DNA from: Candidatus Pacearchaeota archaeon
GTDB taxonomy: Archaea; Nanobdellota; Nanobdellia; Pacearchaeales; GW2011-AR1
Length of the DNA: 64,000 bases
Reading direction: 5' to 3'
Assembly (NCBI GenBank): GCA_041649295.1
Contig: JBAZNI010000002.1
Location: 141,356-205,355 of the forward strand
In this document: positions 3,121 through 64,000 of the stretch, piece after piece
Layout of the letters: each line of letters opens with the position of its first letter
Position numbering within the stretch: position 1 is the first letter of the stretch
Position numbers and translations under genes: made by a program
The notes under the pieces: generated by a model
What the model saw: the letters and a program-made list of their open reading frames with translations, nothing else
Database searches by the model: none
What the model was told of the DNA's origin: nothing

Positions 3121-4881
3121 ATGGGGTGTTTGAAGGAGAGGGGGTTAAGATATTTATTGTCTGGATTATTTTTATTAACACTTGTTTTCCTTAGTTTTAA
3201 TCTTGTTAGTGGATTAAACTGCACTACTGGATTATATTCGACAGATGATTTTTATTTTTGGAATCCAAATAATTCTATTTTATGGGCAGATAGAACTACA
3301 GAGGTTTGTTGCCCAGATAATGCCTGTGTTTCTGATGATGGGACATGTTATTTAAGCACGAAAGATACCTTAAACTTTGCTAATCTTCTTTATTTGAAAG
3401 GAGGGCTTAGCCCAAGGAGCAGTGATAACTGGGCTTATTGTTATTCTCGTGGAGGAAGAGATGGAGGAGAAGCAGATGATGCAAGCTGGATGGATTGTGA
3501 TATCTGGTATTCTGGCTGGTGTAAACATCCTCTTGTTTGCGGTTCAAATTCAGGGGTTAAGTCAGGTGAAACTGCAATTCATGGGGAATATTCTTTAACA
3601 GATATTAATCAAAGTAAATTTGAATGTTGCGGAGATGATGCAAATGAGTATCCATTAAACTATAGTGCAGGAGTTGTTTGTTGTGATAGTGATTCTGATT
3701 TAGTTGATTTAAATGGCAAGTGCCATTCTGCTTCTGGGGAGTTGACCAATTCAAAAGTTGATACAGAGATTAATGCTTTGACTTTTATTAATCTGCGTGA
3801 AGAGGAAAATTTAACTATTATTAACTATCATTTATCGCAGATATTTGGAAACTCTACAGGTTATGCAGGCCTAAATGGGGAAGAGATTACATTAAATATT
3901 TTATCTTATGTAACTCAAATACTCCCATTGGGAAGCACTTTATGCCATACAGGAAGCCAGTCTTTAGAAAGTGAAAGTGCAGACTGCTATGGCTACTCTC
4001 AGGCATTTGAGGTTTTAATTAAAAAAACAGGAATTCCTATAAGGATTGTTAATGTAAAAAACATTGGCTACATGCAAGGGCATACATTGACTGAAGTATA
4101 TTATAATAATTCATGGCATTTATTTGACCCAACATTTGCAACTTTCTTTTATACTAAAGAAAATTTCGATAGTACAGGAAATGTACTTTCATTTAAAGAA
4201 GTACTTACTAATGAAAATTTAATTGAAAACTGCTTCCAAATAAATACTACTATTTACAGCGGGAATTTTACAAGTACAATTGAGATAAGGAAAGTTCCTG
4301 AAGAGTATAAACATAAGCCAAATGTTTCTTTTACTTTAATGCAGTTTTACAGAGAAGCATTATCAACTTCTTTTCCAAATTCATACTTATTTGAAGGTAA
4401 AACAGTTTCATTTCCTTTAGAATTAAATTTAAGCTCTGGAAACTTATGGCTTGGAAGTGTTGACAGCTCTTTTTCAGATTTATCTAATTTAAAAACAGGA
4501 GACAAGTATACGCGTTATGCAGGAAATTGGCTCCTTGGAAAATTAATTCATTCAACCTATGTACATACTGCAATCTTGAATACGCCTGATAAAGGCAAGT
4601 TTAAATTAACTTATTATTTTGTGAGTGGCTCTTTTGAAAACCTGGAAATAACTGAACTTAAGGGAGCTATTGTTACAGGCATTTCTAAGGGGCCAGATTA
4701 TTATGAAATTGAAGGATATGTAAGGGAATCAGGAGCTATTCTGCTTGTTACTAATAAACAACCAGCAGATAATTCCTACAGCAATATTGCGGTTGTTGAT
4801 GCAATTCATGCTGAGTTTTTTGAGAGTAAAGAAATGTTAGCAGAAGGAGATTATAATTATCTATTAACTGCTCATTATTAA
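3121..4881 (+). CDS. secreted protein with transglutaminase-like cysteine-protease core
   Basis: N-terminal hydrophobic signal and Cys-rich N-terminal half. The core DCYGYSQAFEVLIKKTGIPIRIV...GHTLTEVYYNNSWHLFDPT fits the Cys-His-Asp transglutaminase-like pattern. Confidence 0.6.
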   Translation: MGCLKERGLRYLLSGLFLLTLVFLSFNLVSGLNCTTGLYSTDDFYFWNPNNSILWADRTTEVCCPDNACVSDDGTCYLSTKDTLNFANLLYLKGGLSPRSSDNWAYCYSRGGRDGGEADDASWMDCDIWYSGWCKHPLVCGSNSGVKSGETAIHGEYSLTDINQSKFECCGDDANEYPLNYSAGVVCCDSDSDLVDLNGKCHSASGELTNSKVDTEINALTFINLREEENLTIINYHLSQIFGNSTGYAGLNGEEITLNILSYVTQILPLGSTLCHTGSQSLESESADCYGYSQAFEVLIKKTGIPIRIVNVKNIGYMQGHTLTEVYYNNSWHLFDPTFATFFYTKENFDSTGNVLSFKEVLTNENLIENCFQINTTIYSGNFTSTIEIRKVPEEYKHKPNVSFTLMQFYREALSTSFPNSYLFEGKTVSFPLELNLSSGNLWLGSVDSSFSDLSNLKTGDKYTRYAGNWLLGKLIHSTYVHTAILNTPDKGKFKLTYYFVSGSFENLEITELKGAIVTGISKGPDYYEIEGYVRESGAILLVTNKQPADNSYSNIAVVDAIHAEFFESKEMLAEGDYNYLLTAHY

Positions 4882-8716: not shown

Positions 8717-9979
8717 TTAATCCAGCCCTAAATTAGCAATAACTTCTTTTGGAGAGAAAACTTCTAGATTGTCGTATGTTTGACCTGTTCCTAAAAATAG
8801 AACTGGCTTTTTTGTTACATATCCAATTGACACAGCTGTTCCGCCTTTTTCATCTACATCGGCTTTTGTTAGAATAGTTCCGTCAATTTTAAATGCTTCA
8901 TCAAATGATTTAGCCTGTTCTGTTGCATCGTTTCCAGTAATTGATTCTGCTACAAATATCTTTAAGTCAGGAGAAGTAACGCGAACTATTTTTTCCATTT
9001 CTTTTAGCAAATTGCTTTGTGTATGCATTCTTCCTGCAGTATCAATTAAAACTGCTTTTATTCCATGTGATTTTGCATATTGTATTGCATCAAAGCCAAC
9101 TGCTGCAGGATCTGCCCCATATGACTGGCGGATTACCTTTAATCCTAGTTTTTCTCCGTGATTTTCAAGCTGTTCTATTGAGGCTGCTCTGAATGTATCC
9201 CCTGCTGCTAAAACAGATATAATCCCTTCACTTTTTAACATGTTTGCCACTTTTGCAATTGAAGTTGTTTTGCCACTTCCATTAATTCCGAAGAAAAGAA
9301 TTATAAACGGGCCTTTTTCAGCAGGTTTTTCTTTTATTCTTTTAACTATATCAAAAGGAGGCATGAGTATTTCTGAAAGAGATTCTTTTAAAGCTGTTTT
9401 TATTTCATTTTCAAGTTCTGATTTTTTAAGCTCTATATTTATTAGCTTTTTTTCCATATCTTCTTTTATTTTATCAACAACCTGCAAAGAAACATTATTT
9501 TCAAGCATTACTAATTCTAGTTTTTCAAAGAATTCATTAAATATGTCTTGAGATAGTCTTATTGTGCTAAATCCCCGGCTAAATTTTGAGAAAAACCGGA
9601 TATTTTCAGCAGGTTTCCCTTCTTCAATCTTTTTCTCAATTTTAACCTCGGGTTTCGCCTCTTTTGTTATGCTTAAAGGGGTGTTTGGCTTAATTTCAGG
9701 CGCCCTTAATTTAATTTTTTCTTCTTCTAATTCCTTTATTTCCCCTTCCAGTTCTTCAATCGCATGTTTTATCTCTTCTTTATTTTCTTCTTTATTTTCT
9801 TGTTTTTCTTCTTTAAATTCTTCCTGTTTTTTCCTTTCTTTTCTTTCAGAAGTCGTTTCTTTAGCTTTTTCACTTATTTTTTCTTCTTTACTTTCAACTA
9901 TATCTATCTCATCTACTTTTTCTTCTTTATCTCCTGCTCCAAGGAGTTTTCCTAATTTTTCCTTAAGAAATTTAAACAT
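8717..9979 (-). CDS. ftsY: signal recognition particle receptor FtsY
   Basis: Glu/Lys-rich acidic N-terminal domain, then an NG domain with GINGSGKTTS, DTAGR and TKADVD. Confidence 0.95.
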   Translation of the reverse strand: MFKFLKEKLGKLLGAGDKEEKVDEIDIVESKEEKISEKAKETTSERKERKKQEEFKEEKQENKEENKEEIKHAIEELEGEIKELEEEKIKLRAPEIKPNTPLSITKEAKPEVKIEKKIEEGKPAENIRFFSKFSRGFSTIRLSQDIFNEFFEKLELVMLENNVSLQVVDKIKEDMEKKLINIELKKSELENEIKTALKESLSEILMPPFDIVKRIKEKPAEKGPFIILFFGINGSGKTTSIAKVANMLKSEGIISVLAAGDTFRAASIEQLENHGEKLGLKVIRQSYGADPAAVGFDAIQYAKSHGIKAVLIDTAGRMHTQSNLLKEMEKIVRVTSPDLKIFVAESITGNDATEQAKSFDEAFKIDGTILTKADVDEKGGTAVSIGYVTKKPVLFLGTGQTYDNLEVFSPKEVIANLGLD

Positions 9980-10073
9980 GCTTTTACCAGTAGTTATTAA
10001 CTTATAAATTTGTCTGTTTGAGTGTATTTCTTACAACCATAATTATTTTAAATGAGCAAGTGTTTTTTGTTTA

Positions 10074-15566: not shown

Positions 15567-15654
15567 ATTAAATTTTGATTAGTTATTTATCAATTTGTAT
15601 CTGAAATAAGGTTTTTAAACGTTATTATTCGCTTTATTATTCTTTATAGATAGA

Positions 15655-15726
15655 TGGCCCTGCCCGGACTCGAACCGGGGTTATATCCACGTCAAGGATA
15701 TGTCTTAACCCCTGGACCACAAGGCC
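15655..15726 (-). tRNA. tRNA-Val (anticodon GAC)
   Basis: Acceptor GGCCTTG/CAGGGCC, anticodon stem TATCC/GGATA, loop TTGACGT, T-arm CCCGG-TTCGAGT-CCGGG. Confidence 0.85.
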
Positions 15727-15860
15727 ATTTTATAATTTAAATTTGAAGGTATATAATGCTAACTATTTAAATTTTTAATTTTATTTTACTTAGTAACTTA
15801 GTAATTTATTTAGTTAATAAGAAACATTTAAATATCAGGTTTTTTTATTTTCCTTGAGAG

Positions 15861-16001
15861 ATGATGAAAAAATACTTGCTACTTATTGAAGATGAGAAAC
15901 TTTGGGAGAAATTTAAGCTGACTATACAAAAGGATATTAATAGTGAAATTATGAATTTAATTAAAAGCAGGGTGTTAAAAGAGAGGAAAAATGCTGAATA
16001 A
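15861..16001 (+). CDS. small ribbon-helix-helix-like protein (46 aa)
   Basis: Hand-translated: MMKKYLLLIEDEKLWEKFKLTIQKDINSEIMNLIKSRVLKERKNAE, a beta-strand plus two helices. Overlaps the next gene by 11 nt; below the ORF-track size cutoff. Confidence 0.4.
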   Translation: MMKKYLLLIEDEKLWEKFKLTIQKDINSEIMNLIKSRVLKERKNAE

Positions 16002-17880
16002 AAAGGGAGAGTTTGATAAAAAGGGGCAAGTTACTATATTTATTATTATGGCAGTTGTAGTTGTTGCACTTATAGTTGGTTTTTTTGTTTTTAGAGATAG
16101 TATTTTTCCAGTAGATAATAAATCTGGATTTGCAGAAGTTTATAGCTTTTTTGATTCATGCATAGAGCAAAAAACAAGGCAGGGGTTGTCGATATCAGGT
16201 TATCAGGCAGGATATATAGAACTCCCTGAATTTAAGCCTGGAAGCGAGTATGCACCATTTTCTTCGCAACTAGATTTTGTTGGAAGTGGTGTGCCTTACT
16301 GGTTTTATCTTTCAAGTAACGGGGTTGTAAAAGAACAGGTTCCTTCTATGTCGCAGATTGAATCTCAGTTAGAAAATTATCTTAGTAATAAATTAAAAGA
16401 ATGCGATTTTTCAGATTTTAATAAAAGAGGAATTTTTGTTGAAGTTTCTGAAATGAATCCTAGTGTAAGAGTTAAAGATACAGAAGTTGCTGTTTCCATT
16501 ACTGGGAATTTAGTTGTTTCAGATAATGAGACAAGCTCAGTTAGAAAACACCATAGTGTAAATGTAAAAAGCAAGTTTGGCAAGTTTTATAATTTAGCAA
16601 GAGAAATTTATTCTAAAGAAACAAGCGAGGCGTTTTTAGAAAATTATGCAAGAGATGTTATGTATAATTATGCTCCTGTTACAGGTACAGAGATTTCATG
16701 CTCGCCTTTGATGTGGAATCCGCAAGAGGTTACAGAAGATATAATAAATGGGCTGTCTGCAAATATCGGAGCTTTGAAATTAGATGGAAGTTATTATGAT
16801 TTGAAAAATAAAGAGAATAAATATTTTGTAGTTGATATTAAAACTGATGATAGTGTTTCATTTATGTATAATCCTGACTGGCCAACTAAAATTGAAGTAT
16901 GGCCTGTTGAATCTGGAACAATGATTGCAGAGCCTGTTGGACTAGAACAAGGTATGGGGATACTGGGATTTTGTTATGTGCCTTATCATTTTGTTTATGA
17001 CATTTATTTTCCCACCTTAATTCAGATATACGATGATGATGAAATTTTCCAATTTCCTGTTGCAGTTCTTATTGATAAGAGTAAGCCAAGAAATGAGTTG
17101 TCTTTAGGTGAAATTAGTGAAATAGAAGGAACAATAGATGAAATCTGCAATTATAAGGAAAGTAAAATAGATGTTTATACTTATGACGCAGAAATTAATC
17201 CTGTTGAAGCATCTATTGATTTCCAGTGCCTGAATCAGAAATGTTATATTGGAAAAACACAAGTTGCAAATGGCGGAATTTTATCAACAGACTTCCCGCA
17301 GTGCGTTAATGCAAAAATTATTGCAAGAGCTGATGGGTATTTAACAAGTGAAAGGATATTCTCAACTAATTTGCCCGGACAGGTTGATTTGTTAATGGAC
17401 AAGCTGTATGAATTAACATTAGATGTTGAAATTGGAGGAAGAGAAGCAGGGGATAATTTGGTAGTTGTTAATTTCCAGAGCACTTCAAATACATTTAGTG
17501 TTATTTATCCGGATCAAAATAAGGTTAAATTAGCTGAAGGAGATTATAATATTAGTGTTCAGGTGTTTGGAAAATCTTCGTTATTTATTCCTGAAAGTTC
17601 AACAAGGCAATGTGTAGAAGTTCCTGCTCCAGGTTTGTTGTCTGGAATTTTTGGAAGAACTACAGAAAATTGCTTTGACATTACTCTTCCAAGCCAGAAT
17701 ATTGATAATGCTCTTGTTGCAGGCGGAAGATTAAATGAGTATATACTTGAATCTGAACTAAAAGGAAAAACAAGGGCTGAGATTAATGTGCCTGCACTTC
17801 CAACTCCAAATAGTTTAGAGCAGTTGCAGAAAAATTATGAACTAGTTAATACAAATAGTTTAGGATGGAATATTAAATGA
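15991..17880 (+). CDS. large extracellular protein with class III (prepilin-type) signal peptide
   Basis: N-terminus MLNKKGEFDKKGQ-VTIFIIMAVVVVALIVGFFVF has a KGQ cleavage-type motif followed by a hydrophobic helix. ATGA overlap with the downstream giant gene. Confidence 0.6.
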   Translation: MLNKKGEFDKKGQVTIFIIMAVVVVALIVGFFVFRDSIFPVDNKSGFAEVYSFFDSCIEQKTRQGLSISGYQAGYIELPEFKPGSEYAPFSSQLDFVGSGVPYWFYLSSNGVVKEQVPSMSQIESQLENYLSNKLKECDFSDFNKRGIFVEVSEMNPSVRVKDTEVAVSITGNLVVSDNETSSVRKHHSVNVKSKFGKFYNLAREIYSKETSEAFLENYARDVMYNYAPVTGTEISCSPLMWNPQEVTEDIINGLSANIGALKLDGSYYDLKNKENKYFVVDIKTDDSVSFMYNPDWPTKIEVWPVESGTMIAEPVGLEQGMGILGFCYVPYHFVYDIYFPTLIQIYDDDEIFQFPVAVLIDKSKPRNELSLGEISEIEGTIDEICNYKESKIDVYTYDAEINPVEASIDFQCLNQKCYIGKTQVANGGILSTDFPQCVNAKIIARADGYLTSERIFSTNLPGQVDLLMDKLYELTLDVEIGGREAGDNLVVVNFQSTSNTFSVIYPDQNKVKLAEGDYNISVQVFGKSSLFIPESSTRQCVEVPAPGLLSGIFGRTTENCFDITLPSQNIDNALVAGGRLNEYILESELKGKTRAEINVPALPTPNSLEQLQKNYELVNTNSLGWNIK

Positions 17881-20800
17881 AAATTAAATTATTTTTAGGA
17901 ATTGCATTTTTATTAGTTTTGACTTTAACAATTGTATCTGGAGCATCTACTTTTGAAGGGGATAAATACAATAGTTTTGGAGGAAGCAGTTACACTTATT
18001 CATCTCCACAATATACTCAACCAGGATTTATGGGAAGTGATTCAGGTTATTACGGGCTTTATCCTGGATATGACAGAGAAACATGCCAGGCAAGAATGGA
18101 CTTTTTAATTCAAATTGCTCCTGGAGGCTGCACTCCTGCAGTTGTAAGAAGTGATTTATTAGCTGAGCAAGATGTTGCTGTTTTCTGTAAATTGCAGGCA
18201 TTACAGATAAACCCATTTATTGATACTACTACTATTAGAAATTTAGTTATTACACATAGAGGAAATCTTCCTGAAGGTGTTTCTGGTGTAGGTTATCACC
18301 GCCCTCAAATAGCGCTTACTAATGGATATAATGAACAAGGATTTTTTACTTTGGATAATATTGGGTATGCTGTTATTAAAATAAAACAGCAGCCAGATGA
18401 AAGAAAATTACTTGATTCTGTTTCTGGAAATTTAACTATTAAGGTTCAGTATGATGCGTCTAATACTTTTGGAATGGGAAAGAGCGAGTTAATTTCTCCT
18501 GCACTTTCACTAGAAGAGTGGCAGGCAGATTACCCTAAATATGGAATTATGAACGGGCAGGTTTATTTAAGAGTAGAATCAATAGAAGAAGAAAATGTAA
18601 GAGTTTCTGTTTATAGGGATTTTAATACTAAAATTGATACTATTAATCTTAAAAGAGGAGAAACTTCTGCTGAGAAATATCTTTCAGGATTTAATTGCGC
18701 AGCTGCTTATACAATAAGTGTAGGAGATAGTATTGCTCCAAGACCTAAAGCTAAAATTAATTTTCAAGGAGATGTATATGATGTTTATCAAGGAGAGAAA
18801 TTTGCAGATGGAGTTTGTATCGTTGATAAGATTTCGCCAGGAGTTTTAGGAACAGGAAGTGTTACAGGAAAATGCTATAATAAACAATTTGTACTAAGGT
18901 TAAATCAAAAACCAGTTCAATTAGAAGTTGATGGCACTACAAAAGAAATTGCAGTTGGAAGCAAGATAAAAGAAGGAGTTTATTTAGCAGGTTCTGGCAT
19001 TTATCTTGATACAAAATTTGTTTTATTATTTAAGGGAGCAAGCTATGATTCTGCTTCAAAAATAACTGCTCAGAAAAATGTTGATTTAATAAAAAAACAA
19101 GGAACTAGTGTAGAATTAACTGATAAAGATAAATATGTTGTTCTTGTAATTGATGAATTGGGTATTGGTGGAAGTCAGATTAATAGTGGAATTAAATTTG
19201 TAGAGTTAAAAGTTGCAGATAACTTTGTTTCTGATAATCCTGATTTTGAAAATTCTTTTTCTTCTGCAATAGGTTATTATGAAGAAGTTGAGGATAATTA
19301 TGGAGAATTTGAAACTATGGATAATGAAAATTATGAGATTTATGGGGTTGTTGCTTTAGATGAAGCGAGTTCATTTGCAAGCAACGTGTGGAAAAAAGAA
19401 ACTGCTGTAGAACTTGCGCAAAAATTAAAAGATAAATATAATGTTGTTTCAAGTGTTCTTTTAACAGAAACTAATTTTGATTATTCTGAATCTGCTTCTG
19501 TTATTGATGTAAATGATTTAAGTTATAGTATTTCTTTAGAATCTGTTGATGAACCTGAAGAAAAAGATTACGCTGTTTTAATAGAAATTGATGGAGCTCT
19601 TGCGCCTCCTGTTAAGAGAGAAGGCACTGTATTATTTGATAATATTAAAGTTGATTCTTTTACAAATAAAGAAGTTAAAATAACTGGAAAATGTGCTGAT
19701 AAAGATGTTGGCGAGACATTGAAATTGGCAGAGACAAAAGAAATATGCGGGAAGATAATTTATGTAAAACAAATTAATTATAATTCTTATGCTAAGATTT
19801 CTTTTGAACCAATAACAAGAAGATTAGGAAGTGAAGTTAATATTAGTTATTCAATTGGAATTGAAAAAAGAGCAATAGAGCTTAATCCTGAAAAAGCTGC
19901 AGAGAGAATTAAAAAATTAAATGAGAGCATAGCAAAATGGACAAATATTAACAAGAATTTAGGAGATGTTGTTAAGACAATGAAAACAGCGTGCTTTGCA
20001 ACAACAGCTGCTTTGCAAGTTAAGAATTTGTTTGGAAATTTAGGAGGAAAAGCAATTGCAAGAAATTCTGTAATGACTTCTGATAATGGATGGAACCAGA
20101 AATGCACTGATATAGTTGCTGAAAATCCAAGTATAAGTTTTGATAAATGTATAAAAGATAATGCAGATAAAATTGAAAGTGATGTTGAAGCAAGATACAA
20201 AGCAATACAAGAAGTAAATAATGCAATAAAAGAAATTGAATCTAATTTGCCTGCACAAGACGGAATTCTTAATACAAAAGTAATTGATACAGAAGCTTCT
20301 TTAGATAAAACAATTAAAAATATTCAGTCTGAGTTTGGGAATGATGCTACCTATAAAGATAAAGTTGCAATGCTTAATAAAGAAACATTAAGTTATGATG
20401 AAGCAAGAGAAATCTGGGTTAATTTGAAACTGCAGAGAGAAAGTGCAAGTGAGGTTTTAAAGTTATCTTCTAAAACTTCTTTAGAGAATACATTCAAAAG
20501 CATAGAAGCTATTCAAAAAAGAGAAAGTGTTAAAGATAAATTAGAAGCAGGAAGTGTGACTGATAATTTTGTTTTTGGAACAATAGAAACAGACAAAAGT
20601 GCAAAAGTAATTCCTTATTCTGGTTCTGTTGCTGAAAAAGATTTAGTTAGTGGGGGGGTTATAATATCAAAAGGAAAACCTGTTGGAGGAGTAACTGTTG
20701 GAGCTTCTAACTATATGGTTGAACTAGTTAATACTGGAGAGAATAAATATAAAGTTGCTAAAGGTGATGATAATACTGCTCATATTTATGAAATAGGAGA

Positions 20801-23603
20801 TAGTGGCAATATTATTTCAGCTATTAAAACAGATAACCCTGTTTATGATGAGATTATTGCTTTATCTTTTCAGAAGTTTGATTCTACTTCGTATAATAAC
20901 AAGTGGAGCAGTCCTAAGGTTAGGTATTATGAAACAGGGGTGTATAAGGGAATGCCTGCTGTTGTTCCTGTTGATGCTAGCAAAGGTTGGTATGCTGGGA
21001 CAAAACCTGTTCTTGCTGGTTTTGGAGATTCAACAACATTCCAGGAATCTGGAAGAGTTTCAAGTTTCTGGGTTTGTAATGTTGGTGAAAATGGAAGAGA
21101 GCAGTTTAATTCAGGATTAGGAGATGATGTTTGTGAGCAGTTTAATGTTGGAACAGGACAGTCATTCAGCACTTTCCCTGGACTTTCTGAAGCAGATGCA
21201 AGTTCTATTATTAAACAGGCAATGGCTGCACTAGAAGATGCTGCAAGAAATTATAAATCTGGACTTAAGAAAGTAAGTATAAGGGGTAAAACTTATGATG
21301 TAGATGATCCTGCTGTTGCTATTTCAGGAACAAGGTGTACTGATTTTATGTCTGCTAGAGATTGTCAGATAATGTTTAATGTTTGTGACCCGGTTATATG
21401 TCCAAGTTCAAGATGTAATTTAGGAGGAAGTTATTATGTAGATGATGTTGTTCAGAGTGGAATTGTTGGGAGTATTTTCTTATGCCTTCCAAATTATAAA
21501 GAAGGAATTTTCATACCTGTTTGCCTTACAGGAATTCATGCAGGAATTGAAAACTGGATTTCAATAATGAGTGCGTCGAGAGATTGTTTGCAAGAATCAA
21601 TTGATAGTGGAAGATATGTTGGAATTTGTGATGAGATAACTGCAATTTACAAATGCGAATTTTTCTGGAAGCAGTTTTCTCCTTTAATGAATAATATTAT
21701 TCCTAAGTTATTAGAAAGGTTATCTGGAAATAGTGTTAGAGGAGGAGGAGAATATCTTAGTGTTCAGTCTGCGTGGGATAATATGCAGAGTTCTATTAAT
21801 TATTTCAAGAATGAATATGGAGTTAATGCAATGAAAGCATTTAGAGCTCGTTCAACAGATGAAGTTGGAACAGAAGTTTGCAAGTCATTTATTTCATTTA
21901 AATATGCAAATAAATTTGAGACTTTAATAGAGCCTGACTCGCCTTCACAATATAGTGCTTGGTTTACAGAAATTCAGCAGACAACTGCAACAATACCTGC
22001 AATTTCTCAATATAAAGTTTATTATCATATTTATGCAGGAAATGATGCTGGAATTTACTATTCTGTTTATTTGAAAAACAGAGCTGGAGAGACATTTTAT
22101 GATAATACTGGTTATCTTAATGTTGTTGCTTCGGGATATATAAACAAGGGAGAGTATGTTGATATTGCAAAAGACTTTACAGCACCTTCTGGTTTCAAGG
22201 AATTATGCATTAGAGTTAATGGACAAGATGATTGTGGTTTTAAACAAGTATCTACTTCATTTGCACTTAATTATCTTAGAGATAAATATGTTCAGAGTGA
22301 AGCAACTGAGCAAATTACTAAAGAAGATGACTGCATATCTGGAACGCCGAATGCAGCAGCTGTATTATTAACTCCAAATATTCAGGCAGGTGTTGAAGAA
22401 AGTATTAATACTAATATTTATGAAAGAGGAATTATAAGAGTTTGTTCTACTGAAAATCCTGGTTCAACAACAGAACCTTCACGATGGGAAAAAGTAGGTT
22501 ATTGCACTGATAGTAAAGTTGGATGCTGGTTAGATACAGAATCTATTAGCAATGCAATAACTTCTGGAAATGTAGGTGTTAAAGATGCAACACTTGCAGA
22601 AATTCAGGCACTTGTAGATGAGCAGAAACAAGAGGAAAAAGCTGGAAGAGTCTATACTGATTTAGAAATAGCAAATGCACTAACAGAAGTTAGAAATAAA
22701 ATTCCTAATGTAAAAACAGAAGAAGAAGCTAGTGATTTAATTGTAGAATTAGAAACAATTGAAAATTCTCCAAGTATACTTGTGGAAAAACAAAGAGCTG
22801 AAATAATATTCCTTAAGGCAAAAACTAAAAGAGCACTTAGTGAGCAGCTTTGGAAAGAAGTTCAGGCAGGATTAGCTGTTAAAAGAGTTAATGATTATGC
22901 AGCGACTGGAAAAGAAAATCCAGAGGCTCCTGCGACGCCAGAGACACCCGAGACGCCTGAGACACCTGTTGAAACAGGGCTAAATGACGAAGTTCCAGAA
23001 GTTTTACAACCTTTATTCTTAGAAGTCTCTGAAAAAACAGGAGTTCCAGCAGCATTAATAGCAGCAATTTCAAATCAAGAGTGTAGTGATCTTTGGGGTG
23101 ATGCTCAAACAGATCCAACAAAAATAATTGATTTAATAGATAATGATAAGATTCCTGCAAGCAGAGATATTTGTAATTACAATAATAAATACAATGTATT
23201 TGGCCCGATGCAATTTAGGATTGGTAAAGCGTATTTGAAAGAACATGGTATGGAAATTTATCAAACTACTCCTGATGGAAAACCAAATCCCAATGTTGGA
23301 ACATGGGAAGGTTATGTATCTAACACAGCAGAATTATTAGAAATTGATGAAGAAGCACTCAGCCCATTAATTATTCGACATTCAGTATATGCTGCTGCTA
23401 TAAAATTAAAAAAAGATGCGGGAAGTCCTACTGATTGGACAGAAGCAGAAATTAAAGAAGCTGCGAAAGGATATTTTGGGGCTTGTACAGCAGAACAGAC
23501 TATTGGCGGGAAAAAAGTTACAGTTAATTATTGCGATGATATTATTTCTAAATATAATAAGTATAAGGTATTAAAAGAATCTACTCCTTTTCTTATTGCT
23601 TAA
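17877..23603 (+). CDS. giant secreted protein (1908 aa) with C-terminal lytic-transglycosylase (SLT/GH23)-like domain
   Basis: Sec signal MKIKLFLGIAFLLVLTLTIVSGAS, a Cys-rich central region, a PEAPATPETPETPETP linker, then VPAALIAAISNQECS...GPMQF resembling the SLT E-S...G-L-M-Q core. Confidence 0.7.
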   Translation: MKIKLFLGIAFLLVLTLTIVSGASTFEGDKYNSFGGSSYTYSSPQYTQPGFMGSDSGYYGLYPGYDRETCQARMDFLIQIAPGGCTPAVVRSDLLAEQDVAVFCKLQALQINPFIDTTTIRNLVITHRGNLPEGVSGVGYHRPQIALTNGYNEQGFFTLDNIGYAVIKIKQQPDERKLLDSVSGNLTIKVQYDASNTFGMGKSELISPALSLEEWQADYPKYGIMNGQVYLRVESIEEENVRVSVYRDFNTKIDTINLKRGETSAEKYLSGFNCAAAYTISVGDSIAPRPKAKINFQGDVYDVYQGEKFADGVCIVDKISPGVLGTGSVTGKCYNKQFVLRLNQKPVQLEVDGTTKEIAVGSKIKEGVYLAGSGIYLDTKFVLLFKGASYDSASKITAQKNVDLIKKQGTSVELTDKDKYVVLVIDELGIGGSQINSGIKFVELKVADNFVSDNPDFENSFSSAIGYYEEVEDNYGEFETMDNENYEIYGVVALDEASSFASNVWKKETAVELAQKLKDKYNVVSSVLLTETNFDYSESASVIDVNDLSYSISLESVDEPEEKDYAVLIEIDGALAPPVKREGTVLFDNIKVDSFTNKEVKITGKCADKDVGETLKLAETKEICGKIIYVKQINYNSYAKISFEPITRRLGSEVNISYSIGIEKRAIELNPEKAAERIKKLNESIAKWTNINKNLGDVVKTMKTACFATTAALQVKNLFGNLGGKAIARNSVMTSDNGWNQKCTDIVAENPSISFDKCIKDNADKIESDVEARYKAIQEVNNAIKEIESNLPAQDGILNTKVIDTEASLDKTIKNIQSEFGNDATYKDKVAMLNKETLSYDEAREIWVNLKLQRESASEVLKLSSKTSLENTFKSIEAIQKRESVKDKLEAGSVTDNFVFGTIETDKSAKVIPYSGSVAEKDLVSGGVIISKGKPVGGVTVGASNYMVELVNTGENKYKVAKGDDNTAHIYEIGDSGNIISAIKTDNPVYDEIIALSFQKFDSTSYNNKWSSPKVRYYETGVYKGMPAVVPVDASKGWYAGTKPVLAGFGDSTTFQESGRVSSFWVCNVGENGREQFNSGLGDDVCEQFNVGTGQSFSTFPGLSEADASSIIKQAMAALEDAARNYKSGLKKVSIRGKTYDVDDPAVAISGTRCTDFMSARDCQIMFNVCDPVICPSSRCNLGGSYYVDDVVQSGIVGSIFLCLPNYKEGIFIPVCLTGIHAGIENWISIMSASRDCLQESIDSGRYVGICDEITAIYKCEFFWKQFSPLMNNIIPKLLERLSGNSVRGGGEYLSVQSAWDNMQSSINYFKNEYGVNAMKAFRARSTDEVGTEVCKSFISFKYANKFETLIEPDSPSQYSAWFTEIQQTTATIPAISQYKVYYHIYAGNDAGIYYSVYLKNRAGETFYDNTGYLNVVASGYINKGEYVDIAKDFTAPSGFKELCIRVNGQDDCGFKQVSTSFALNYLRDKYVQSEATEQITKEDDCISGTPNAAAVLLTPNIQAGVEESINTNIYERGIIRVCSTENPGSTTEPSRWEKVGYCTDSKVGCWLDTESISNAITSGNVGVKDATLAEIQALVDEQKQEEKAGRVYTDLEIANALTEVRNKIPNVKTEEEASDLIVELETIENSPSILVEKQRAEIIFLKAKTKRALSEQLWKEVQAGLAVKRVNDYAATGKENPEAPATPETPETPETPVETGLNDEVPEVLQPLFLEVSEKTGVPAALIAAISNQECSDLWGDAQTDPTKIIDLIDNDKIPASRDICNYNNKYNVFGPMQFRIGKAYLKEHGMEIYQTTPDGKPNPNVGTWEGYVSNTAELLEIDEEALSPLIIRHSVYAAAIKLKKDAGSPTDWTEAEIKEAAKGYFGACTAEQTIGGKKVTVNYCDDIISKYNKYKVLKESTPFLIA

Positions 23604-23627: not shown

Positions 23628-23774
23628 TGCGAGGGACAGGATTCGAACCTGCGTAGGCACTAAGCCAGCAGATTTCTCAAGTTTCTCTTACTCCTATAAA
23701 GGAAGGTGTGTGAGAGGAAACCTTGGTTTCCTTCATCTTGAGTCTGCTTCGTTTGACCACTCCGACACCCTCGC
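23628..23774 (-). tRNA. tRNA-Leu (anticodon CAA) with 63-nt intron after position 37
   Basis: Acceptor GCGAGGG/CCCTCGC, anticodon stem GCAGA/TCTGC, loop CTCAAG|intron|A, long variable arm TGGCTTAGTGCCTAC, T-arm GCAGG-TTCGAAT-CCTGT. Intron at 23674..23736. Confidence 0.85.
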
Positions 23775-31335: not shown

Positions 31336-33348
31336 ATGGGAAAGGAGGGGGCTGCACTTATTATCAGTATTATGTTGCTGGGGGTTGTTTGTGCACTTTC
31401 TTTTACAGATACTGGTCAGGAGAATTTCAGCTTTGGAATTTATAATAATACAGAATATAATGGGAGTGCGATTATTTTATGTCCTGGAAATTTATCCGGA
31501 ACTTATACAAGCAAAATTTTTGATGCAGAAGTTGGGTCTATCTGGAAGGATTTAGCCTGGCAAAAAAAGAGTTACAACCCTTATAATTCTTCATTAACTT
31601 CAGTTTTTCATTCAAGAAGAAATAGATCTGAGGTTTTTAACCTCGATAACATTTATTATTCAGCAGATATGAGGGACTTAAATAAAAATCTTTACCTTAA
31701 TTTTTCAGCCACTTTACTGGATAATTCAGTGATTAAGTTTTATGCTAAGAAAAGCAAGGGATTAACTATTGGGATTTATTCACAGGATGATCCATCTGGA
31801 AGCACCGCTCTTGGGAATCTTTCTATTACTTCTGTGTCTGGCGAGTGGTATAATATAACATTGAATATATCAAGCCCTACAAGTAATATTTGGATTGGAG
31901 AGGGAAGTAAAAGTGAAAAAAATCCAAAAGATGACTTTGATTATATTTTTGCAGAAGTTCCCGGAACAAATATAACACTTTTGGCAAGAAACTGTTCTCA
32001 AGATAATTGCTCTGATAGCATATGGCAAGAGATTAATTTTTCTAATATTCAATTATCCGGCAGATATTTTCAATATATAATATTTTTTGAAAGTCCGGAT
32101 AAAACTATAACTCCTTATTTTCAAGGAATTGAATTTAATTATACAATTATTAATTTTCCGCCAATTATTTATATTTATTCTCCAGAAGAAAGAATTTATG
32201 AGTATAATGAGTCTTTAAGTTTGAATTTTAGCGTTAGTGATGAAGATAACAATCTTGATAGTTGCTGGTATAATCTAGAGGGCGAAGAAAATATTAGTTT
32301 AGTTAACTGCCAAAATATTACATTTAATCTTTCCGAGGGCAATCATGTTCTTTTTTTGTATGCTAATGACAGTTATGGCGAGGAAGCAAATAATTCTGTC
32401 AATTTTTCAGTAAGCATACCTGTTGCAATCCCTATTACTAGAGATTTAAGCGGAGGAGGGGGGGGCAGCGGTGGCGGAAGTAGTGGTGGCGGAAGTAGTG
32501 ACGGAAATTTGGGAAATAACTTTGATGAGAGTGTGATAAACAGCAGTTTGGAGGATTTAATAATTAGTAATTTAAGTTTTGTAAATATTCCCAGTGTGCT
32601 TGTAAATCCTGGAGAATCTAAAGAATTAAGGTTGATTGCTAGAAATACCGGAGAGAACTATCTTAATCTTTGCAAATTAAAAGGGACAGGGGCATATAAT
32701 TCATGGATAACTTCTAATGAATTGGGGAATATAAACAGCGGACAATCTTATGAATTCATATTTAATTTAAATATTCCAGAATCAACTTCTCCTGGAGAAT
32801 ATTATCCAAGAATTGTGGTTGAATGTGAGAAATCATCAGAATCAACAGAATTTGTAATTAATGTTCTTGATAAAAAATTAGAGTTTGATTTAGTTGAAGC
32901 AAGAAGAATTGATAAAGGAAATATTAAAGTTAAGTATATAATGAAAGAATCTTCTGGTATTAATCAGGAGGTTAAAATCCAGTTTTTATTTTATGATTCT
33001 GAAAATCAAAAAATTACAGAGTATTATGATGATAAGTTCATCGCCGCTGGTTCAGAAAATGAGTTTGAATCTTTAATCCCTATAAACAGTGATATTGAGG
33101 GTTCTGTAAGCCTGCTTATTAATTTTAATTCGGAAATTTACTCTAGTTTTGTCCAGGAAAATGTTATGATAGGCTCTCCTATAAGTGGTTTTGCAATTTT
33201 TTCAAGAGCATCTGGAAGAGGTATAACCCTTAGTGTTGTTTTTGCAGTTATCTTCTTAATTTTTGCAACTATCTTAATTATAAGGATTTATAACTTTAGA
33301 AAAAGAGCTGGGCATATAAGGGGCTATAGAAAAAGGAAAAAGCATTAG
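31336..33348 (+). CDS. large surface protein, sequon-rich, Gly/Ser linker, C-terminal TM anchor
   Basis: N-terminal hydrophobic segment, more than 20 N-x-S/T sequons, the linker SGGGGGSGGGSSGGGSS, and a C-terminal TM ITLSVVFAVIFLIFATILII plus a basic tail. Confidence 0.55.
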   Translation: MGKEGAALIISIMLLGVVCALSFTDTGQENFSFGIYNNTEYNGSAIILCPGNLSGTYTSKIFDAEVGSIWKDLAWQKKSYNPYNSSLTSVFHSRRNRSEVFNLDNIYYSADMRDLNKNLYLNFSATLLDNSVIKFYAKKSKGLTIGIYSQDDPSGSTALGNLSITSVSGEWYNITLNISSPTSNIWIGEGSKSEKNPKDDFDYIFAEVPGTNITLLARNCSQDNCSDSIWQEINFSNIQLSGRYFQYIIFFESPDKTITPYFQGIEFNYTIINFPPIIYIYSPEERIYEYNESLSLNFSVSDEDNNLDSCWYNLEGEENISLVNCQNITFNLSEGNHVLFLYANDSYGEEANNSVNFSVSIPVAIPITRDLSGGGGGSGGGSSGGGSSDGNLGNNFDESVINSSLEDLIISNLSFVNIPSVLVNPGESKELRLIARNTGENYLNLCKLKGTGAYNSWITSNELGNINSGQSYEFIFNLNIPESTSPGEYYPRIVVECEKSSESTEFVINVLDKKLEFDLVEARRIDKGNIKVKYIMKESSGINQEVKIQFLFYDSENQKITEYYDDKFIAAGSENEFESLIPINSDIEGSVSLLINFNSEIYSSFVQENVMIGSPISGFAIFSRASGRGITLSVVFAVIFLIFATILIIRIYNFRKRAGHIRGYRKRKKH

Positions 33349-62021: not shown

Positions 62022-62277
62022 ATAATATTATTATTTTCTGCATTTAAAAAGATATTTATAATAGACAAGATATTTCATTTACTTTTTAATTTATTTAGCA
62101 ACCCTTTTTTTTCTCATTTTTTAGTTTATATAACTGTTATGAAATCTTGTATAAACTGTATGTTGTCTTGGATTGCTTTGGCATTGCAGACCCTTTAATG
62201 TATATAATCTAGCAATTAACTTCAAAGAGTATTGAAGTCTTCAAATTATTTATAAAGGTGGTTTGCTATTGGTTTGT

Positions 62278-64000
62278 ATGAAAAAATTACAATTGCTTAA
62301 TGTATTGCTGATTGTTTGTATAGCAATATTTGCAATTCTTGTATTTAGCATTTTTCAGCAACAACCTGATTCTGGAACTGAGAAAATCAATAAATTTAAT
62401 TCTTATAAAGAGCTGGCTGAATTTGTGAATAAATCGAGTTCTTCTTATTATAGCTATTATGGCAGAGAAGGTATAGGAGGCATGGAAATACCTAATGCAG
62501 TTATGGAGGAGAAAGACAGCAGTTCTGAATCTGGCGGAGCAGGGGATTATTCTGCCACTAATATACAAGTAGAGGGTGTTGATGAGCCAGATATTGTAAA
62601 AAATGACGGAAAATATATTTATGCTGTTTCTGGAAATAAAGTATTCATTATTAATGCTTATCCTGCAGAATCTATGGAAATTATTTCTGAAATAAATTTA
62701 AACAAAAGTGTTAGTAATATATTTATTAATGGAAATAAATTAGTGATTTTTTCAAATGGGCATAATTATATTCCTTATGTTGCAGATTGTGCTGTTGATA
62801 GTGCTGGAATGATGAAGGACTGCGGAGGTTATTCAGAGTCTTCAACTATTGCCTCTGTTTATGATATATCTGACAAAGAAAATCCAGAACTTGAAGATGA
62901 ATTTTCTTCAGATGGTTATTATGTTGATGCAAGAATGATTGATAAATATGTTTACTTAATTTCTTCAAAATACATTTATACAGACAATATTTTTATGCCA
63001 AGTTTTTCAGCTAATGGTATTAAAGAAACTGTTTCTGCAAGTGATGTGTACTATTTTGGATATTCAGATAATAATTATGTATTTAATTCAATTATGGCAA
63101 TAAACTTAGATAATGGAGAGTATGAAAGCAAAGTCTATCTCACAGGGGGTTCAACTTCTTTGTATGTTTCTGAAAATAGTATTTATTTTACTACTATTAA
63201 ATCTATAGGTTATCATGAGATTATAGATAAGAGGATTGAAGAAGTTTATTTTGAAATACTTCCCAACTCTGAAATATCAGAAATAAAAAATATTCTTGAT
63301 TCAGATGAAGAAGATTATAAAAAATACAATAAAATTGAGGAAATTATATATGAATATTCTAATTCATTAACTGGAGAGGAAAAAGATAAATTTGATTCTG
63401 ACTTAAAGGATAAAATAGAAGAATTTCAGATTAAAATTTCTAAAGAATTAGAAAAGACAATTGTGCATAAAGTAAGCATTGATGGAAGTGAGATTAATTA
63501 TAAAGGAAGTGGAGAAGTTCCTGGGCAAGTTTTGAATCAGTTTTCAATGGACGAGTACCGGGGAAATTTTAGAATTGCAACTACTACTGGCAATACTTGG
63601 AGCGAAACAAGCTATAACCACCTCTATGTTTTAGATGAAGATTTAAAGATAATTGGAAAAATTGAAGATTTAGCTAAAGGTGAAAGAATTTATTCTGTTC
63701 GTTTCTTGGGAAGCAAGGCATATATGGTTACATTTAGGCAGGTGGACCCTTTATACGTAATTGATTTATCTGATTCTGAAAACCCTGAAGTTTTGGGTTA
63801 TCTTAAGGTAACAGGATATTCGAGTTATCTTCATCCTTATGACGAAAATCATATAATTGGTGTGGGAATGGAGGCAAATGAACAGGGAAGAACTCAAGGG
63901 ATGAAAATCGCTTTGTTTGATGTTTCTGATTTTGAAAATCCAAAGGAAATGAGCAAATATGAAGTTGAAGGGGTGTGGAGTTATTCGCCTGCGTTATATG
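62278..64000 (+). CDS. secreted beta-propeller domain protein (Beta_propel family), 3'-truncated by the window edge
   Basis: Hand translation from ATG 62278: MKKLQLLNVLLIVCIAIFAILVF...DYSATNIQVEGVDEPDIVKNDGKYIYAVSGNKVFIINAYP...FRQVDPLYVIDLSD. Absent from the ORF track because it has no stop in the window. Confidence 0.75.
   Translation, partial: MKKLQLLNVLLIVCIAIFAILVFSIFQQQPDSGTEKINKFNSYKELAEFVNKSSSSYYSYYGREGIGGMEIPNAVMEEKDSSSESGGAGDYSATNIQVEGVDEPDIVKNDGKYIYAVSGNKVFIINAYPAESMEIISEINLNKSVSNIFINGNKLVIFSNGHNYIPYVADCAVDSAGMMKDCGGYSESSTIASVYDISDKENPELEDEFSSDGYYVDARMIDKYVYLISSKYIYTDNIFMPSFSANGIKETVSASDVYYFGYSDNNYVFNSIMAINLDNGEYESKVYLTGGSTSLYVSENSIYFTTIKSIGYHEIIDKRIEEVYFEILPNSEISEIKNILDSDEEDYKKYNKIEEIIYEYSNSLTGEEKDKFDSDLKDKIEEFQIKISKELEKTIVHKVSIDGSEINYKGSGEVPGQVLNQFSMDEYRGNFRIATTTGNTWSETSYNHLYVLDEDLKIIGKIEDLAKGERIYSVRFLGSKAYMVTFRQVDPLYVIDLSDSENPEVLGYLKVTGYSSYLHPYDENHIIGVGMEANEQGRTQGMKIALFDVSDFENPKEMSKYEVEGVWSYSPALY

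Follow-up and report, generated by a model that had tools for sequence, protein, structure and literature searches.

We analysed a window of 64,000 nucleotides (nt) from the genome of a Candidatus Pacearchaeota archaeon (assembly GCA_041649295.1, contig JBAZNI010000002.1, positions 141,356-205,355, forward strand). It contains three overlapping open reading frames (ORFs) on the plus strand, encoding a small protein of 46 amino acids (aa), a 629-aa protein with a prepilin-type signal and a secreted protein of 1908 aa, referred to below as the giant. The locus is no island but has been passed on vertically as a core operon of Pacearchaeota-type DPANN archaea. In the best reading of the data, to which we give roughly an even chance, the operon builds a surface complex composed of a prepilin-type anchor and a giant with an exchangeable murein-cutting tail, placed under the control of the small protein. 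Attachment to a host, or breaching of its wall, is a plausible function, and on sequence grounds the operon is a leading candidate for the means by which these archaea engage bacteria.

The conclusion concerning vertical inheritance follows from the wide distribution of homologues, the invariable pairing of the two large genes and a shared gene neighbourhood. The 629-aa protein has approximately 1,962 significant homologues of the same length (44-60% identity), all of which are unnamed or annotated as 'hypothetical', and none of which contains a Pfam domain. Those with a named source originate nearly exclusively from metagenome-assembled genomes (MAGs) of the Pacearchaeota/Nanoarchaeota type, and a scan of one genome per species revealed at least 557 species-representative genomes encoding this protein. 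More than 120 homologues of the giant were identified (31-55% identity), and those whose source is named come from MAGs of the same type. A first-pass annotation of this DNA had treated the three genes as a single unit and had proposed the co-occurrence of the two large ones as a check. In all 85 loci examined the pair was found together: the N-terminal block of the giant lies directly downstream of the 629-aa gene, and its middle and C-terminal core blocks come next in order wherever the contig is long enough. The junctions between the two genes are tight or overlapping, both in this locus and in three distant relatives. Within the window, the 46-aa and 629-aa ORFs overlap by 11 nt and the 629-aa and 1908-aa ORFs by 4 nt (ATGA), in exact agreement with the coordinates first given.

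The operon is embedded among housekeeping genes, with NDK, rpS3Ae and rpL44e upstream and TFB and rpS8e downstream. In distant relatives the pair is accompanied by rpS3Ae-rpL44e on the upstream side (3 of 3 loci) and by TFB-rpS8e on the downstream side (2 of 3). As the neighbourhood is both conserved and of housekeeping character, and as no phage families (PHROGs) were detected, we reject an origin of the locus as a mobile island or prophage. The G+C content is ~31% throughout.

The N-terminus of the 629-aa protein (MLNKKGEFDKKG/QVTIFIIMAVVVVALIVGFFVF, the slash marking the predicted cut) has the layout of a class III signal, as first annotated, with a charged residue at position -2, G/A/S at -1 and the processing site (KKG/QVTIFIIMAVVVVALIVGFFVF, i.e. 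KKG/QVTIF) placed ahead of a hydrophobic domain. The hydrophobic stretch that follows this site is ~22 residues long and lies within a hydrophobic helix (residues 13 to ~38). The motif [KRDE][GAS]Q[ILVMT][TAS][ILVM][FYW] was found in 106 of 120 homologues, preceded by leaders of 4-57 residues; most of the 14 remaining proteins have truncated N-termini or near-variants of the motif. Q13 and 10 Cys residues are invariant in the family. According to published criteria, processing requires G/A/S at -1, and in archaea the charged residue at -2 is critical; KGQV is the FlaFind-predicted processing site of two substrates of EppA, the Methanococcus maripaludis pilins EpdB and EpdC, and substrates of this enzyme have a conserved Q at +1 (PMC4371748).

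The AlphaFold2 model of this protein (107 sequences; predicted local distance difference test score, pLDDT, 90.3) consists of a long helix (residues 10-38), a lower-confidence linker, an alpha/beta domain (~48-365) and a C-terminal region rich in beta-strands (~389-629), which the fold matches lead us to read as beta-sandwich domains. Foldseek searches of PDB and viral structures produced only generic matches to tandem beta-sandwiches (TM-scores 0.11-0.18), including Gram-positive pilins, tip adhesins, SlaB, and phage tail and baseplate proteins; none is a specific structural relative, and the alpha/beta domain had no fold match. No similarity to Pfam, NCBIfam, PDB (sequence or profile) or PHROG entries was detected.

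These features could be taken to indicate a type IV pilus fibre with the 629-aa protein as a true minor or tip pilin and the giant as a tip-borne adhesin, together forming part of a long appendage. The EppA-type processing site with Q at +1 is in keeping with such a role, and the best Foldseek matches are indeed pilus tip adhesins and shaft pilins (PitA, SpaC and SpaA). However, the matched Gram-positive pilins are built by sortases and have only beta-sandwich folds in common with the archaeal protein, whose helix, linker and separate domains form a geometry unlike that of a pilin head. Moreover, no pilus ATPase, platform or major-pilin gene was found in the locus gene tables and window ORFs checked, and we consider a long pilus very improbable.

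The giant carries a conserved Sec-type signal peptide (SGA/S), in line with the secretion originally proposed, and its hydrophobicity profile reveals no further segment of transmembrane (TM) length. The mature N-terminus (residues ~24-68; window positions 17946-18080) is a low-complexity stretch rich in Gly, Ser and Tyr, with a [ST]N[PA]QY.QPGF-like motif common to many homologues. The core of the protein comprises ~1,560 residues, among them 28 Cys that are invariant or nearly so, and the C-terminal block of the core retains 43-64% identity across loci. The Cys-dense region recognised in the first-pass annotation proved to be the best-conserved part of the giant. It contains two short Gly-rich hydrophobic stretches (residues 1190-1206 and 1209-1225), and AlphaFold2 predicts helices in this segment at low confidence (pLDDT <50). 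The model of residues 990-1908 is partly confident (mean pLDDT 63.8): it is reasonable at 999-1149, 1359-1489 (beta-rich) and 1519-1669 (beta and helix), and poor in the Cys-rich segment and in the tail. A Foldseek search with this model returned nothing below E = 0.01, and the core has no family match in Pfam, NCBIfam, PDB or PHROGs. The initial statement that neither the 629-aa protein nor the first ~1,650 residues of the giant belong to a described family thus holds for curated families, but large proteins of the same description had already been reported by Castelle et al. 2021 (PMC8204110).

A pair of this kind, present throughout the lineage in a housekeeping neighbourhood beside ribosomal-protein genes and following the logic of an anchor with a large unanchored partner, might instead constitute the main S-layer-type envelope. 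The 629-aa protein would then be the stalk and the giant the lattice or canopy, as are SlaB and SlaA in Sulfolobus, with the tails as optional decorations. That half of the relatives of the giant have no recognised hydrolase fits this proposal, and Foldseek lists SlaB (8qox_B) with a probability of 1.0 over 298 columns. We nevertheless regard it as unlikely. The SlaB match is of the generic beta-sandwich type (TM-score 0.13-0.18), is ranked below Gram-positive pilins, and is accompanied by no match of the giant model to SlaA or any other structure at the threshold given above. SlaB, a stalk that also has a coiled coil, is anchored by a C-terminal TM helix, whereas the anchor of the 629-aa protein is N-terminal. 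S-layer proteins usually diverge fast, whereas the core of the giant has kept both its Cys residues and its high C-block identity. A dedicated regulator and operator, as described below for ~60% of the genomes, would be unusual for a constitutively expressed envelope gene, and the window holds another envelope-type candidate (670 aa, combining a signal peptide with a TM segment at the C-terminus). The resemblance to SlaA/SlaB of Sulfolobales (PDB 8qox) therefore lies in the arrangement, i.e. the gene for a membrane-held beta-sandwich stalk adjoining that for a large unanchored partner, while the pair described here is anchored at the opposite end, gives a low TM-score, is far more conserved and is rich in Cys.

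Conservation of the giant collapses after a CW[LI]D motif near residue 1550, and from residue ~1560 onwards the protein ends in a variable tail, which in homologues is 105-1,374 residues long. All Pfam domains located in the seven relatives scanned are situated in the tail, beyond CW[LI]D, and are active on murein: SLT, Glucosaminidase, Phage_lysozyme2 with Amidase_3, Hydrolase_2 (SleB type), YkuD, GH3 and DUF2272. A precomputed Pfam list for other relatives, in which the position of the domains within the protein was unchecked, also includes PG_binding_1, Peptidase_M10, Hint, DUF1615 and ankyrin repeats. Across all relatives the recognised domains are mostly peptidoglycan-active. The type of tail changes at least 24 times on the tree of the core C-block (118 tips), five tail types are present in the well-supported 9-member clade that includes this giant, and 66 of the 118 tails contain no recognised hydrolase domain. 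Situated on a variable tail, the hydrolase is thus an accessory that can be exchanged and not a component of the core. In one relative (L002/L003, 18625-21917) a 274-aa ORF comes after the operon, and then a second large protein (>972 aa) with PG_binding_1, Phage_lysozyme2 and Amidase_3, i.e. extra murein enzymes beside the giant.

For the tail of the giant in this genome, described at first as a muramidase-like domain, assignment to the lysozyme superfamily comes from profile-profile comparison, direct sequence searches being negative. Using hhalign, the profile of the tail family was matched with 92% probability (E = 6.4e-7) to an SLT profile constructed from the tails of 41 giants, while reversed, shuffled and unrelated profiles used as controls reached at most 0.2%. 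The alignment places ISNQEC on imiQES and GPMQF on GLMQI, bringing the catalytic Glu and the G-x-M-Q motif into register; at the profile level both hallmarks of SLT/GH23 are therefore present, with the Ser that follows the Glu replaced by Cys (E-C for E-S, and GPMQF for GLMQ). The candidate catalytic residue is E1735 (window positions 23079-23081). Within the tail family (18 members) this residue (E37 of the family alignment), G78, Q81, a Trp and two Tyr are invariant. A hidden Markov model (HMM) of SLT domains built from the paralogous giant tails scores this tail at 1.7 bits. We regard the tail as a divergent SLT-like domain and a predicted enzyme that is probably active. Among homologues of the giant the domain occurs in a single protein, the closest relative (P0123). 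In a library of 1.84 billion representative sequences, 60 relatives of the domain were found. They are mostly stand-alone proteins of 230-450 aa, and the short ones that were aligned (among P0242-P0300) have an N-terminal hydrophobic segment. Scans of 10 of these relatives gave no Pfam match, and searches of phage genomes (tblastn) and of a word-indexed protein collection with the tail domain gave no matches.

Tails of this kind would also suit a feeding enzyme, i.e. a murein depolymerase, held on the surface or released, that scavenges amino sugars and amino acids from the walls of dead bacteria. The presence among them of exo-acting or turnover-type domains (GH3/NagZ-like, YkuD, amidase) agrees with this idea, as does a proposal that Pacearchaeota use the peptidoglycan of dead cells (PMC11537232). 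Nonetheless, a disulfide-locked scaffold of ~1,560 residues with an obligate partner far exceeds the needs of a secreted hydrolase, no hydrolase was recognised in half of the relatives, and the chimney Pacearchaeota of that same study are without a GH23 enzyme. Such a feeding role, which would serve a free-living or loosely associated cell, seems to us distinctly unlikely.

The third component of the operon is the small ORF. Of the 85 loci, 52 have it, in one copy each, immediately before the 629-aa gene. Most of its homologues begin at the second Met (position 15864 here). Their identity (60-85%) exceeds that of the two large proteins, and 12 columns are invariant (consensus MKKYLLLIEDEKLWEKFKxxIxKDINSEIIELIK). 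The entropies of the three codon positions (0.58, 0.36 and 1.19) are the signature of purifying selection acting on a protein which, together with the invariant residues, rules out a chance ORF. Locus L056 has, immediately before its full copy of the small ORF, a second and partial copy in tandem (9793-9998; HMM E = 1e-22 for the full and 9e-6 for the partial copy). The protein matches no Pfam, NCBIfam, PDB or PHROG family; the best match in a PDB profile search was Sda, at E = 0.25. The ribbon-helix-helix (RHH) fold suggested in the first-pass annotation is a matter of sequence pattern: every HMM test failed, and we reject the designation of the small ORF as a confirmed RHH protein.

When the DNA preceding the operon in 48 loci was aligned on the TATA sequence (15827-15834 here, about 27-34 nt upstream of the first ATG), it revealed the consensus ttacTTA.TaAcTaAcTtA.TaA.TaA.TTA.TAAGAAA.aTTTATATA, in which an array of ~40 bp, composed of 4-nt-periodic T-W-A-S units, abuts a block resembling a B recognition element (BRE) and TATA box. 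Transcription from this putative promoter would yield a leaderless mRNA or one with a very short leader. The array is the sole (TWAS)x4 site in the window. Scored as the number of in-phase units in the best 40-nt span per locus, it reaches a median of 8 in loci with the small ORF (at least 6 in 46 of 50). In all 31 loci without the ORF the score is 5 or lower, the same as in background tiles of the analysed stretch, among which only the tile holding this promoter scores 8. In 1.39 Mb of loci plus the window, all 84 clusters scoring 7 or more are situated within 320 nt upstream of a small ORF, and none elsewhere. Both ORF and array are present in 48 loci and both are absent from 30, the ORF occurs alone in one and the array alone in none. 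Loci devoid of the ORF have a similar BRE/TATA block before the 629-aa gene and no array. On the tree of the 629-aa protein the small ORF has been gained or lost at least 12-17 times, and the array tracks it in 12 of 12 phylogenetically independent contrasts (sign test, p ~0.0005). This strict association and the position of the array against the BRE/TATA block point to the small protein being a dedicated regulator, with the array as its candidate operator or upstream activating site.

From these components the following complex can be envisaged. The small protein would bind the array at the BRE/TATA block and determine how strongly the operon as a whole is transcribed. After export of the 629-aa protein via Sec, a prepilin peptidase would cleave it between G12 and Q13, and its hydrophobic helix would stay in the membrane or enter a short pilus-like stalk, with the alpha/beta domain and the beta-sandwich-type C-terminal region projecting outward. 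The Sec-secreted, disulfide-rich and anchorless giant would dock on this protein, which would explain why the two genes are never found apart. Beyond a helical and Pro/Thr-rich linker, its tail would present an exchangeable enzyme to bacterial murein, in this genome the divergent SLT-type domain, a presumed cutter of glycan strands whose catalytic Glu is intact. Such a complex could hold on to a bacterial cell wall and open it locally. In a bolder version, the trio would be a host-breaching organelle conserved across the Pacearchaeota radiation, with a pilin-type stalk, a disulfide-locked spike, a sacculus-cutting tail, a segment (residues ~1150-1330, the most conserved of the spike, helical, Cys-rich and including the two Gly-rich hydrophobic stretches) that opens a channel or fusion site in the host membrane, and a hitherto undescribed mini-regulator acting as a switch through its 4-nt-periodic operator; this we consider quite improbable.

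Several observations weigh against the surface complex as we picture it. The proposed docking of the giant has the adjacency of the genes as its sole ground. In the 629-aa protein, the N-terminal helix with its weakly predicted linker does not form the classic pilin 'lollipop' and may perhaps serve only as a membrane anchor, and the window ORFs scanned include neither a prepilin peptidase nor a pilus ATPase. Because 66 relatives lack a recognised tail hydrolase, the conserved pair cannot depend on murein cutting. The tail in this genome gave no Pfam match, either as part of the whole giant or as an isolated 207-aa segment, and missed the gathering score of PF01464. No match was obtained in NCBIfam or in sequence and profile searches of the PDB, and the tail part of the AlphaFold2 model is of low confidence (pLDDT ~30-78) and without a lysozyme match in Foldseek. 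With regard to the regulator, the small protein matches no RHH model (Pfam Arc was found in only 1 of the 30 small proteins scanned, at E = 0.05), and, given the short distance between the array and the ORF, some of their co-losses may be single deletions and not a sign of functional coupling. Finally, among public sequencing runs the locus sequence was present solely in the source DNA metagenome and in no RNA run.

The coordinates of the features discussed above, together with the boundaries of the operon, are given in Table 1. The operon had originally been described as following a tRNA. The tRNA-Val gene in question is in fact located on the minus strand and divergent. On the other side, an intron-bearing tRNA gene, detected by Rfam and missed by ARAGORN, starts 25 nt past the stop codon of the giant.

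Table 1. Positions of the operon, its parts and its flanking tRNA genes within the window
Feature	Position	Strand	Basis or remark
tRNA-Val(GAC)	15653-15727	-	ARAGORN; Rfam RF00005, 56.6 bits; divergent upstream boundary of the operon
Array of nine in-phase 4-nt T-W-A-N units	15786-15821	.	ttac ttag taac ttag taat ttat ttag ttaa taag
Putative BRE/TATA-like promoter	15818-15834	+	taagaaac atttaaata; conserved AAGAAA.ATTTATATA block in 48 loci
Small conserved protein, 46 aa	15861-16001	+	candidate DNA-binding autoregulator; beta-alpha-alpha pattern
629-aa surface protein with class III signal (type IV pilin-like)	15991-17880	+	ORF translation
Leader of the 629-aa protein, residues 1-12	15991-16026	+	predicted cut between G12 and Q13
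1908-aa Sec-secreted giant	17877-23603	+	translation; no membrane anchor (hydrophobicity)
Signal peptide of the giant, residues 1-23, SGA/S	17877-17945	+	Sec-type, conserved in homologues
Core block of the giant, residues ~60-340	18054-18896	+	conservation profile
Core block of the giant, residues ~640-780	19794-20216	+	conservation profile
Core block of the giant, residues ~1000-1560	20874-22556	+	conservation profile
Best-conserved Cys-rich segment of the giant, residues ~1150-1300	21324-21776	+	mean identity to query 0.57-0.73, 70 homologues
C-terminal divergent SLT-like (lysozyme-superfamily) domain, residues 1699-1908	22971-23600	+	profile-profile match; after the PETPETPETP linker
Intron-bearing tRNA	23628-23774	-	Rfam RF00005, 42.1 bits; convergent downstream boundary of the operon

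Three further plus-strand genes of the window encode potential surface or otherwise large proteins. The 670-aa protein mentioned above (31336-33348), which has an N-terminal signal-like segment, a C-terminal TM segment and no Pfam family, is a candidate for an alternative envelope or S-layer-type protein of the same genome. A further surface enzyme may be encoded at 3121-4881: this 586-aa protein has a hydrophobic segment at its N-terminus and a core resembling transglutaminases (PF01841, E = 4e-6). A large protein running off the end of the window (62263-63999) strongly matches Beta_propel (PF09826, E = 2.4e-139).

Pacearchaeota and Woesearchaeota are abundant and uncultivated archaea. It has been reported that they possess large, murein-like lytic-transglycosylase proteins of up to 3,000 aa, specific to these two groups (fam00969), through which attachment to bacterial walls was proposed (Castelle et al. 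2021, PMC8204110), and the same idea has been repeated since (PMC9723730, PMC11537232). The giant fits the description of this family (1908 aa, a Sec signal and homologues often containing PF01464), the match being to the family description only. The giant family is already on record. In these three papers we did not find a description of the obligate partner with a pilin signal, of the conserved core as the defining part, of tail exchange between close relatives, or of the small protein and its array.

In the literature, contact of these archaea with bacteria is inferred merely from the presence of large lytic transglycosylases. The locus described here indicates that such enzymes are the tips of one conserved, partner-dependent and lineage-wide scaffold. 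It also defines parts that can be cloned, namely the prepilin-type stalk, the Cys-rich core without a recognisable fold, the tail position at which murein enzymes are swapped between close relatives, and the small protein with its candidate operator. Two families unmatched in Pfam are added as well, one represented by the divergent E-C SLT-like domain and the other by the 46-aa protein. Several questions thereby become testable: what the complex binds, whether the type of tail corresponds to the wall chemistry of co-occurring bacteria, and whether the operon is induced upon contact with a host.

Each component of the operon can be compared with a known system. With the Epd pilins of M. maripaludis the 629-aa protein shares the charged residue at -2, G/A/S at -1, Q at +1 and a cut site before the hydrophobic domain, including the very KGQV site of EpdB and EpdC. 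Unlike these pilins, it is far larger, is devoid of the QxSxExxxL/DUF361 motif, matches no Pfam or NCBIfam pilin model and has no pilus assembly genes nearby, and its predicted helix and linker lead to globular and beta-sandwich domains. The tail domain resembles SLT/GH23 (PF01464) in having the family-invariant catalytic Glu and G-x-M-Q in register, followed by a later Y-x-G motif, and departs from it in the E-C pair, an insert of ~25 residues between the Glu and GPMQ, four conserved Cys and scores below every Pfam and PDB sequence threshold. The small protein is similar to RHH regulators (CopG, Arc, omega) in its size (~45 aa), its strand-helix-turn-helix pattern (KKYLLLIEDEKLWEKFK...DINSEI..LIK) and a dedicated short-repeat array at its own promoter. 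It differs from them in that no RHH HMM or PDB profile matches it, and the 4-nt period of the array is not that of known RHH operators.

The architecture of the giant, with a conserved N-terminal scaffold that extends to a fixed motif (CW[LI]D) and is followed by tails varying between close relatives, recalls the polymorphic toxins (CdiA, Rhs). This likeness is functional only. The tails of the giant are mostly murein hydrolases instead of nucleases or pore-formers, its gene is followed by a tRNA gene and not by an immunity gene, and no toxin or immunity match was found in Pfam, NCBIfam or PHROGs. With the fam00969 proteins the giant shares its lineage, size class (up to ~3,000 aa), extracellular location and proposed role in wall binding or cutting, and many homologues of the giant carry a Pfam SLT domain and are named 'transglycosylase SLT domain-containing protein' at their source. 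However, whereas the literature defines that family by its SLT domain, in this genome the SLT-type domain is divergent, Pfam-negative and borne on an exchangeable tail. The giant is defined by its ~1,560-residue Cys-rich core, whose gene always lies beside that of a partner with a pilin signal, and in ~60% of the loci this pair is joined by a mini-regulator with its operator array.

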